A DNA stretch of 4,779 bases from Escherichia coli (GTDB lineage: Bacteria; Pseudomonadota; Gammaproteobacteria; Enterobacterales; Enterobacteriaceae). Position 1 is the stretch's first letter; each line of letters starts with the position of its first letter. The notes beneath the pieces are model-generated. The model made no database searches, was not told the origin of the DNA, and saw only the letters and a program-made list of their open reading frames with translations. The stretch lies in the NCBI RefSeq assembly GCF_965641715.1, contig NZ_OZ282459.1; one strand, 5' to 3'. This document shows, one piece after another, positions 1 to 1,125 of the stretch. The position numbers and the translations under genes are program-made.

Positions 1-244
1 GGAAATATGAATACAGATCTTCTTTTGACATTTCCATCAGTTCTTCAACTGATTTATGTGTCATTCTCCTTGTTGCTAAAATAATCTCCTCAACGAGATC
101 GGAGCGTTTTAATTTGCTTGGGTTCTTTGGAAGTAAATTACCAAAGGATTCAATTAGCTCGGCATTAGTCATTTCACTTTTATCCAAGCCAGCTTTAGCT
201 CCCTCAACGCCAAGCCAAGATATCAGTTTTTGGATATCTATCAT
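1..244 (-). CDS. Hypothetical protein, N-terminal 81 codons only (ORF runs off the window start); translationally coupled to the upstream ParA-like gene
   Basis: Minus-strand ATG at 244..242 overlaps the ParA-like stop TGA (243..241) in an ATGA arrangement. GAGGA Shine-Dalgarno lies 7 nt upstream, inside the ParA 3' end. Open frame reads MIDIQKLISWLGVEGAKAGLDKSEMTNAELIESFGNLLPKNPSKLKRSDLVEEIILATRRMTHKSVEELMEMSKEDLYSYF... with no stop before position 1. Absent from the ORF track only because it is truncated. No motif I recognise. Confidence 0.5.
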   Translation of the reverse strand, partial: MIDIQKLISWLGVEGAKAGLDKSEMTNAELIESFGNLLPKNPSKLKRSDLVEEIILATRRMTHKSVEELMEMSKEDLYSYF

Positions 245-1125
245 CGACAAGTCCTCATAAACTCAATCGTCAAGTTCTTAAACTGTGACGCTTGTTTGTA
301 AGCGTTACTTATCTGTACATCATACACTGAAACGCGCTCTGCTGCAGCTACTCTTAGCCCATCACCTTCCGTTATGTAGTGCTTGAAGATGTCACCTGCT
401 TGCCGAAGCCTGTTGTATTCATATTGCTCTGTTTGCTTCAGTTCTTCTGCATATTCTCTGGCCATCATTCCCATTGCTCCGGCGAAAACTGTGTCCTTAT
501 ATGAATCGCCGACTTGCAGTGCCTTTCTTAGCATTTCAATATCTTCATTTACATTATTTATCTCACCTATGACCGTGGCCACACCAATAGATGATTGCCT
601 GTCTAGTTTTACCGGTGATACACAATAATCTGATGCGTAGATTATAGAGCGCATGACATCAGAAACTTCGGGGTGTGAATCAATCAATATGTAGTCATAA
701 TTATCTGCAATAGGTGATAATACAGCGCTTATGGTTTTTAAATGCTGTAAAAGAATGGCATTGTTCGATCTTATATTGTTTGTACTAGGTAGCTTATCAG
801 TTGAAACGGTTGATAAGCGAGGGTCGGCTGGAATGACATCGATACCACTATTAAATTTAATTATGTCTATGTCAGTCGTTTGTTGTGCCGCGCTATATAA
901 TTGCTGATACTTGTTAAATAACGTTGTTCCTTGCGGTGCTTGATTTCCAAAGTTTTCGATCAGTTTAGGGAAAAATCTTCCAGTTATACCTCCGCGTTGA
1001 TAATCTGCATCTATAACTAAAACACGTTTTTCATGAAAACGACTAAGTCCTTCGGCAATGTGATAACAGGACGTTGTTTTACCAACCCCACCTTTCTCAC
1101 TAATAAACCCAACTGTCACAGCCAT
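241..1125 (-). CDS. ParA/MinD-family P-loop ATPase (deviant Walker A), 294 aa
   Basis: N-terminus MAVTVGFISEKGGVGKTT carries the KGGxGKT deviant Walker A signature of ParA/Soj/MinD ATPases, followed by the hydrophobic strand plus Asp (RVLVIDADYQ) typical of the family. AAGGA SD sits 6 nt upstream of the ATG at 1125. Lies in AT-rich DNA unlike the backbone. Confidence 0.85.
   Translation of the reverse strand: MAVTVGFISEKGGVGKTTSCYHIAEGLSRFHEKRVLVIDADYQRGGITGRFFPKLIENFGNQAPQGTTLFNKYQQLYSAAQQTTDIDIIKFNSGIDVIPADPRLSTVSTDKLPSTNNIRSNNAILLQHLKTISAVLSPIADNYDYILIDSHPEVSDVMRSIIYASDYCVSPVKLDRQSSIGVATVIGEINNVNEDIEMLRKALQVGDSYKDTVFAGAMGMMAREYAEELKQTEQYEYNRLRQAGDIFKHYITEGDGLRVAAAERVSVYDVQISNAYKQASQFKNLTIEFMRTCR

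Follow-up and report, generated by a model that had tools for sequence, protein, structure and literature searches.

Characterised ParA-class proteins bind a surface as ATP dimers, and a partner protein binds its own target and stimulates ATP hydrolysis. The described systems closest to the locus of this study are the type Ib partition systems (ParF/ParG of TP228, ParA/ParB of pB171 par2 and delta/omega of pSM19035), the McdA/McdB pairs, which position cargo other than DNA, and GiPD474. The last is a ParA/MinD/Soj-like protein with an AAA_31 domain from the Gifsy-1 prophage, which blocks T4, Alf5 and Felix O1, with a 5-log effect against T4 and Alf5 (PMC12724215). Here, we analysed a stretch of 4,779 nucleotides from Escherichia coli (assembly GCF_965641715.1, contig NZ_OZ282459.1), called the window in the following, which carries a two-gene operon of parA and a partner gene, open reading frame 2 (ORF2). 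Judged from sequence comparison, the operon is a self-contained, horizontally mobile cargo. What is new is an ATPase subfamily, of a well-known kind, together with an unnamed partner family. Our tentative reading of the pair is an undescribed accessory conflict module (defence or exclusion) made of a ParA and its adaptor, possibly shading into addiction.

The module resembles the type Ib systems in its small ParA without an N-terminal helix-turn-helix (HTH), its coupled small partner with DNA-binding-like motifs and the short palindromes of its leader. It differs from them in that the partner is all-helical and similar to helix-extended-loop-helix (HeH)/SAP proteins, not a ribbon-helix-helix (RHH) protein, and in that no repeat array lies upstream. 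Moreover, it occurs mainly on multicopy plasmids and as mobile cargo outside plasmids, and it shares the two larger plasmids with a conventional ParA-based par locus. The McdA/McdB pairs differ from it in other ways: no carboxysome or other cargo genes are nearby here, the signature lysine is present (KGGVGK), and ORF2 is a well-folded helical protein (pLDDT 90), whereas McdB-type partners are disordered. GiPD474 is likewise a ParA-type P-loop protein with AAA_31 and accessory cargo of a mobile element (PMC12724215; compared by description only).

An earlier note on this DNA, made from the sequence alone, had reported a gene for a 294-aa deviant Walker A ATPase, coupled by ATGA to a gene downstream. 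Both were found (Table 1). The Walker A motif is SEKGGVGKTT at residues 9–18 (KGGVGKT at residues 11–17, with the signature lysine), and the TGA stop of parA overlaps the ATG of ORF2 in the ATGA at 241–244. The residues K11, G12, G13, G15, K16, T17 and T18 were invariant among 17 homologues, as were the A' aspartates and the Walker B aspartate, and the ParA/Soj fold was found. ParA matched AAA_31 (1.3e-25) and also CbiA in Pfam, and phrog_164 'ParA-like partition protein' in PHROGs (1.2e-37, residues 1–289). It stayed under every curated NCBIfam cut-off; ParA_partition (NF041546) reached 66.3 bits against the required 180, with a best stretch of residues 5–44 only. The nearest solved relatives by sequence were distant (Borrelia PF-32, 1e-10). 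The AlphaFold model of ParA (predicted local distance difference test, pLDDT, 80) superposed on several ParA-class structures: ParA-ATP 8ray (26.0), McdA (24.9), delta of pSM19035 (23.9), Vibrio cholerae ParA2 (23.4), PF-32 (22.3), MinD (22.1), pNOB8 ParA (21.8) and TP228 ParA (21.0). By its profile matches and predicted fold, the protein is a bona fide ParA/Soj-class ATPase of a divergent, unnamed subfamily. Roles of the MinD type (membrane targeting), the Fe-S type (Mrp/NBP35) and the BcsQ type were rejected, because the best structural and profile matches were ParA/Soj proper and no such neighbours were present.

The ParA subfamily comprised 809 protein clusters (90% identity) at E 1e-10 or better. 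The best 120 of the 809 clusters were 67–100% identical and nearly all 293–297 aa long. The mean column identity of ParA was 79% across alpha-, beta- and gamma-proteobacteria. A tblastn search of ParA against 50,697 phage records gave 83 matching records, all with less than 60% identity; among the matches listed, the identity was at most 32%, to annotated phage ParA-like proteins.

The earlier note had left ORF2 running off the end of the stretch after at least 81 codons. This was corrected by the circular record: ORF2 reads from 244 to 1 and then from 4779 to 4622 round the circle, which gives the whole gene of 402 nt and 133 aa (RefSeq WP_001505260.1, 'hypothetical protein'). The profile and structure-prediction searches that the note had proposed for the complete module placed ParA in the ParA/Soj class and left the partner unmatched by profile, with an HeH-like helical model. 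No significant match to ORF2 was found in Pfam (for the single protein or for all 22 members), NCBIfam, PADLOC, PHROGs or PDB sequence profiles, and no ParB-like domain was found in the profile libraries or in the model. The AlphaFold2 (AF2) model built from 22 homologues (pLDDT 90.5) has eight helices and zero strands. As this model is all-alpha, without a beta-strand, ORF2 is therefore not an RHH centromere-binding protein. It matched no known centromere-binding class (RHH such as ParG and omega, or HTH ParB), in line with the earlier note, which had seen no features of such proteins in the N-terminus of the partner.

In the ORF2 alignment, a conserved N-terminal helix (LxxWLGxxGAxAGL), two HeH-like repeats and a near-invariant basic C-terminal motif (EISDIGMYRRVAKG) stood out. 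The predicted architecture is an N-terminal helix, two HeH/SAP/Rho_N-like motifs and a basic C-terminal helix. In Rho, DEK and SAP proteins, motifs of the HeH/SAP/Rho_N type are the parts that bind nucleic acid. The HeH motifs in ORF2 make DNA the likely target of the partner. ORF2 differs from the Rho N-terminal, SAP and HeH proteins in that no profile match is significant, and its four-part architecture and obligate pairing with a ParA are specific to the family. The profile searches characterise the partner as an unnamed protein family: only 148 members were found among 1.84 billion representatives.

The ORF2-family profile also matched stand-alone proteins of ~70 aa that correspond to its C-terminal half (P0161, P0166 and P0170). 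Moreover, giant proteins of 4,429 and 4,123 aa (P0091 and P0163) were found with five to eight repeated matches each. The stand-alone and giant-protein matches suggest a reusable HeH-plus-helix module.

These protein features are shared with an atypical type Ib-like partition cassette, in which ORF2 would be an HeH-type centromere-binding adaptor whose site, short and fast-evolving, would lie within the operon or close to it. ParA would then spread the carrying element, or an excised form of it, over the nucleoid, and the copies in chromosomes, prophages and transposons would be hitch-hikers or remnants. The ParA/Soj fold, whose best structural matches are without exception ATPases of partition or positioning, and the phrog_164 match argue for this explanation. 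So do the gene order, the ATGA coupling and the partner size, which are typical of type Ib, and the nucleic-acid-binding type of the partner motifs. The ParA_partition score, far below the curated threshold, counts against it.

The centromere search covered direct, inverted and tandem-type repeats in the window, inverted repeats in the upstream DNA of 15 loci, and palindromes within the cassettes and in their surroundings. The repeats in the window were only two-copy repeats of 8–10 nt at chance level and short inverted repeats. No iteron or parS-like array was found upstream, inside or downstream of the cassette in the window and the 15 loci, although a single short site is still possible. 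No palindrome was conserved inside or after the cassettes, and the upstream DNA was unconserved between loci. Neither a known ParB or centromere-binding partner nor a parS-like array, two of the findings that the earlier note had said would together speak against its reading, appeared in the sequence, model or repeat searches. For partition, the missing array and the missing conserved site are a burden. The short inverted repeats of the parA leader are in its favour, as is a perfect 12-bp palindrome (AGCATTAATGCT) in a Pectobacterium locus (L006) at the spot equivalent to the leader; the other loci had no comparable element.

The window is a whole circular ColE1-type mobilization (MOB) plasmid, as it matched complete plasmid records end to end: NZ_CP122725.1 (4,778 bp) at 100% and NZ_CP129389.1 (4,779 bp) at 99.9%, both over the full length. 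Near-identical circular plasmids (4,776–4,779 bp, 99.8–100%) came from E. coli of pigs and Salmonella Infantis of humans. The small mobilizable ColE1-type plasmid of the earlier note was confirmed from RNAI, the MOB genes (MobC, MbeB and MbeD, annotated in matching records) and a cer-like Xer site. The cer-like pattern, for which we assumed a consensus, matched once in the window and never in 200 shuffles. The plasmid has its own cer-like XerC/XerD site and therefore does not depend on active partition, which agrees with the reliance of ColE1 replicons on cer/Xer put forward in the note.

The operon lies in an AT-rich cargo of 1,629 bp, formed by the two arms listed in Table 1. In the alignment with NZ_CP056893.1, similarity stops at 4357 and resumes at 1208; the backbone is 95% identical, and the cargo site holds other DNA, a 560-bp insert with a 155-aa ORF. 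The GC content is 37–44% across the module vs 55–64% across the backbone, the contrast already described in the earlier note. The note had also called the operon acquired, and the other DNA at the site in NZ_CP056893.1 and the same module on other ColE1 backbones bear this out.

The module was found in 34 of 72,556 PLSDB records, and 31 of the 34 were mobilizable plasmids of 4.5–9.1 kb. These small-plasmid copies span at least two different mob backbones. In complete E. coli genomes (20 of 5,426), it was always on plasmids of 4.8–9.1 kb and never on the chromosome. Only two larger plasmids carry the module, and both also have a conventional ParA-based par locus. In Yersinia ruckeri pYR2 (16.9 kb), a second ParA of 208 aa with a 95-aa partner lies 1.3 kb from the module, and this ParA matches ParA_partition end to end (145 bits). 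A ParDE and RES toxin region is near the module in the same plasmid. In Acidovorax pAV3334-1 (49 kb), a ParA and a true ParB (TIGR00180, 121 bits vs a cut-off of 58) lie beside repA, and StbB is present too; the module sits elsewhere, between umuDC and a type IV secretion system (T4SS), near Fic/VbhA and RelE toxin–antitoxin pairs. With small mobilizable hosts in the great majority and a separate par locus on both larger plasmids, a role as the locus that segregates a low-copy replicon was not borne out.

For a partition cassette, the near-absence from low-copy plasmids and the concentration on multicopy ColE1 plasmids with a cer-like site are hard to accommodate. The same holds for the conventional par loci on both larger plasmids; one of these loci is next to repA, and the other is 1.3 kb away from the module. 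Dual par systems are, however, known on some plasmids (pB171 and R27), which counts for partition.

An identical module was found in NZ_MK360094.1 (pSE11-03671, L036), an 8.9-kb ColE-type plasmid with the colistin-resistance gene mcr-5.1. In NZ_CP157101.1 (L002, 9,144 bp), parA, the partner gene and mobC are doubled and mbeB/mbeD are single, as in a partial dimer or a long-read assembly artefact. In scaffold1 of Yersinia ruckeri ATCC 29473 (L031, 3.67 Mb), the gene set of pYR2 (ParDE, BrxR-like, RES and both ParA pairs) runs into chromosomal-looking genes. Either the plasmid is integrated there, or the scaffolding produced an artefact.

The two genes are inherited together. All 20 distinct relatives with available upstream DNA had a ParA gene (294–297 aa) directly before the partner gene, and 18 of the 20 were not mere further copies of the module of this plasmid. 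The 4-nt overlap was kept at 14 of the 17 non-identical parA–ORF2 junctions examined. The identity of the relatives to the window proteins was 63–94% for ParA and 38–89% for the partner. The ratio of nonsynonymous to synonymous substitution rates (dN/dS) was 0.02–0.03 for ParA and 0.02–0.08 for ORF2. The synonymous sites were saturated (dS above 1–3), even between two ColE1 plasmid versions that are 94% identical in protein. Low dN/dS, saturated dS and linkage together mean that the pair is old, co-inherited and strongly constrained in all contexts. Hence, judging from this strong purifying selection, the module is no decaying relic. In the alignments, the partner evolved faster than ParA, as centromere-binding proteins do, a further point for partition.

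Outside plasmids, the module was found as cargo of islands, phages and transposons. In the transfer-gene clusters of Citrobacter integrative and conjugative elements (ICEs), it stands beside EcoRII restriction–modification (PADLOC REase_II, 2e-181) or a methyltransferase (MTase)/HATPase pair. An integrase island of Pectobacterium carries it with a KAP NTPase (PADLOC PDC-S49, 2e-99), TacAT and CcdA. An integrase island of the Hydrogenophaga type has it 31 nt downstream of a cluster of NsnA-like GmrSD (3.7e-52), HEPN and a C5-methylase, and a Pseudomonas island has it near pyocin S. It also occurs near a Tn7-like tniQ, with a frameshifted parA. In two phage-type contigs, it lies just past the lysis genes, in one of them directly past a DNA methylase. 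In a P2-like prophage of Pseudomonas, it lies ~6 kb past the portal gene. The cos-proximal interval of E. coli P2 between gpA and the portal gene gpQ is a validated defence hotspot (PMC9122126).

Two copies are isolated pairs in the core chromosome, between a GGDEF gene and mutS in Vogesella and between thiC and an Impact_N gene in Alteraurantiacibacter. Intact and strongly constrained copies in integrated prophages and the core chromosome, and the module beside a Tn7-like gene, speak against partition. Taking both sides together, we regard a partition cassette as unlikely.

Among ~13 contexts, defence genes were neighbours in three (EcoRII, the PDC-S49 KAP NTPase and the NsnA-like GmrSD with HEPN and MTase; a count without background statistics) and toxin–antitoxin genes in three, one of which also has the KAP NTPase. 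Three contexts were phage accessory regions, and two had neither mobile nor defence genes. The multicopy hosts with a cer-like site, the co-resident par loci and the constrained copies outside plasmids are what would be expected of accessory cargo, not of a segregation locus. The earlier note had offered an atypical partition cassette and an accessory system as alternatives. Both are kept open here, and the places where the module occurs tilt the choice towards the accessory system without settling it.

In the accessory module that we tentatively favour, ATP-bound ParA dimers would be located on DNA or on the nucleoid. ORF2 would bind DNA through its HeH motifs, contact ParA and trigger ATP hydrolysis and release. 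The best candidate for the ParA-activating element is the conserved basic C-terminal helix of ORF2 that carries EISDIGMYRRVAKG. The active component of the pair would be ParA, with ORF2 as the regulator that directs it to DNA. The cycle would serve conflict with phages or rival elements and not the segregation of a multicopy ColE1 plasmid. DNA binding by ORF2 is inferred here from its motifs, the stimulation of ParA from the analogy with characterised pairs and the biological role from the places where the module occurs. Since GiPD474 has anti-phage activity, a ParA fold in defence has a precedent.

A more specific form of this reading is an effector-less class of defence or exclusion. Nucleoid-bound ParA and the HeH partner would block or mislocalise incoming phage or plasmid DNA, or kill the infected cell by seizure of the nucleoid, and the pair would travel as portable cargo on ColE1 plasmids, ICEs, Tn7-like transposons and P2-like phages across Proteobacteria. 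We consider this form somewhat doubtful.

Several results weigh against defence or exclusion. No effector domain of the nuclease, membrane or NADase type was evident in either protein. Neither protein had a meaningful PADLOC match: in PADLOC-DB v2.0.0, ParA matched only PDC-M28B (9e-6, P-loop residues 5–51) and ORF2 only DruE (0.009, noise). The anatomy of the module is indistinguishable from that of a type Ib partition cassette, and all structural neighbours of ParA are ATPases that position cargo. The sample for guilt by association is small (~13 independent contexts, without background statistics); several neighbours are toxin–antitoxin pairs and not defence genes, and two contexts lack any mobile or defence genes. 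GiPD474 also differs in architecture: it is the product of a single gene (WP_000368620.1, 361 aa, with an extra domain) in a prophage immunity region, whereas the ParA here has 294 aa and an obligate partner, and the likeness is by description only.

The toxin–antitoxin neighbours bring in a further explanation, namely addiction. Unrestrained ParA would be harmful, ORF2 would neutralise or regulate it, and loss of the element would kill or arrest segregants. The harm could arise if ParA binds or compacts the nucleoid or disturbs replication or segregation. ParA proteins (P1 ParA and Soj) are deleterious when over-produced or deregulated, which counts for this explanation. No toxin or antitoxin domain was found in either protein in Pfam and NCBIfam, which speaks against it; the two-gene overlap and the toxin–antitoxin-rich surroundings are compatible with such a module. 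The pair is an overlapping operon and isolated cargo among TacAT and CcdA, ParDE and RES, and Fic/VbhA and RelE, and its spread over small plasmids, islands and the bare chromosome is like that of toxin–antitoxin systems. The putative toxin gene would come first, which is the less common order, and it is unusual for a toxin to be as extremely conserved as this 294-aa ATPase, in which every catalytic motif is intact.

Broken copies bear on addiction in both directions. In L008 and L009 (9121–10004), parA is frameshifted near residue 50, and in L032 (9121–10004) it is split into 146 and 137 aa; ORF2 is intact in all of these. A broken parA with an intact ORF2 in two lineages fits ParA as the costly or active partner, a point for the conflict module, and addiction gains from it as well. 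In the E. coli plasmid CP122734.1, ORF2 is split by an apparent frameshift, maybe a sequencing error, and the match is annotated only as 'hypothetical protein'; if real, this copy would count against addiction. On balance, addiction appears improbable.

The libraries and literature searched contained no description of the pair, and two ColE1 survey papers do not mention the module; the statement of the earlier note that it was not yet described can therefore be kept. The IbfA paper was set aside as irrelevant, because that system is an ATPase-TOPRIM.

ParA is the textbook engine of plasmid and chromosome segregation, and here a tightly conserved subfamily acts like portable cargo. If defence, exclusion or addiction is true, the mechanism works without a classical effector enzyme, and the pair is a two-gene counterpart of the single-gene GiPD474. 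If partition is true, the partner represents a new HeH-type class of centromere-binding adaptor, and the question becomes why multicopy ColE1 plasmids, including the mcr-5.1 plasmid, keep such a system. The unit of 1.6 kb is small enough for direct testing.

The parA leader lies back-to-back with the RNAII promoter, which we presume to be at 1182–1211 from an alignment with the pMB1 RNAII promoter. In this alignment, the -35 element (TTGACG, 1182–1187) is in cargo DNA, the -10 element (TACTCT, 1206–1211) straddles the cargo junction and the spacer is filled by the 7-bp inverted repeat at 1183–1202. A consensus promoter scan gave no site in the leader (1126–1207). The juxtaposition of the RNAII and parA promoters could couple regulation of the module to replication priming. 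Coupling to ColE1 copy number or replication is one form of a positioning or regulatory module that acts on something other than the carrying DNA; nucleoid organisation and the silencing of foreign DNA, which would lower the cost of carriage, are others. The two promoters are juxtaposed only in the ColE1 context and not at the other loci, and no candidate cargo gene was conserved beside the pair across the examined loci. We hold such a module to be highly improbable.

Table 1. Positions of features in the 4,779-nt window
Feature	Position	Strand	Basis or location
parA, ParA/Soj-class ATPase, 294 aa (RefSeq WP_001505259.1, 'ParA family protein')	241–1125	-	ORF and annotation
ORF2, 5' part, codons 1–81, ATG 244–242 overlapping the parA stop	1–244	-	Annotated WP_001505260.1
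ORF2, 3' part across the record origin, stop TAA 4624–4622, with motif EISDIGMYRRVAKG	4622–4779	-	Circular translation
Left arm of cargo	4358–4779		NZ_CP056893.1 comparison and GC profile
Right arm of cargo	1–1207		NZ_CP056893.1 comparison
parA leader/promoter region, cargo-specific, 82 nt	1126–1207	-	Promoter assigned by reading the sequence
Inverted repeat TGACGTT-N6-AACGTCA	1183–1202		parA leader
Inverted repeat CGTCAA-N8-TTGACG	1168–1187		parA leader
Imperfect 5+5 palindrome AGCGTcaACGCT	1166–1177		parA leader
RNAI of ColE1 replicon	1222–1324	-	Rfam RF00106, 95.6 bits vs gathering score 47
cer-like XerC/XerD core GGTGCGGGCAA-CGGATG-TTATGGTAAAT, 6-nt central region	4329–4356	+	Pattern search
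Hairpin, perfect 11-bp stem, 3-nt loop, then T-run	4595–4619	-	Repeat search and sequence
DUF2158 gene, 61 aa, past the operon terminator	4395–4580	-	Pfam DUF2158 2.9e-6; phrog_3261 2.7e-8

The hairpin behind ORF2 is likely the intrinsic terminator of the parA–ORF2 operon, judging from its stem and T-run. At the other end of the cargo, the RNAI terminator hairpin lies at 1223–1254, and 15 nt (1208–1222) separate this hairpin from the cargo junction (1207/1208). A 511-aa ORF occupies the relaxase position of the backbone (2437–3972). The cer-like core abuts the junction 4357/4358, where similarity to NZ_CP056893.1 stops. This position suggests that the cargo was exchanged at or beside the Xer site.

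Syntenic copies of the DUF2158 gene follow the partner gene in Yersinia pYR2 (41% identity) and in a plasmid of Enterobacter (58%); the other loci lack this gene. By its synteny, it is an optional third cargo gene that accompanies the module in Enterobacterales. It was unannotated in the gene tables of the matching plasmids (PLSDB tables, which are incomplete).

In four unrelated contexts, genes for a UmuD/UmuC-type translesion polymerase and/or an SRAP (YedK-like) protein were found near the module, a few kb away at most (L035, 4017–5771; L040, 3357–5856; L029, 4011–4691; L039, 3114–3743).

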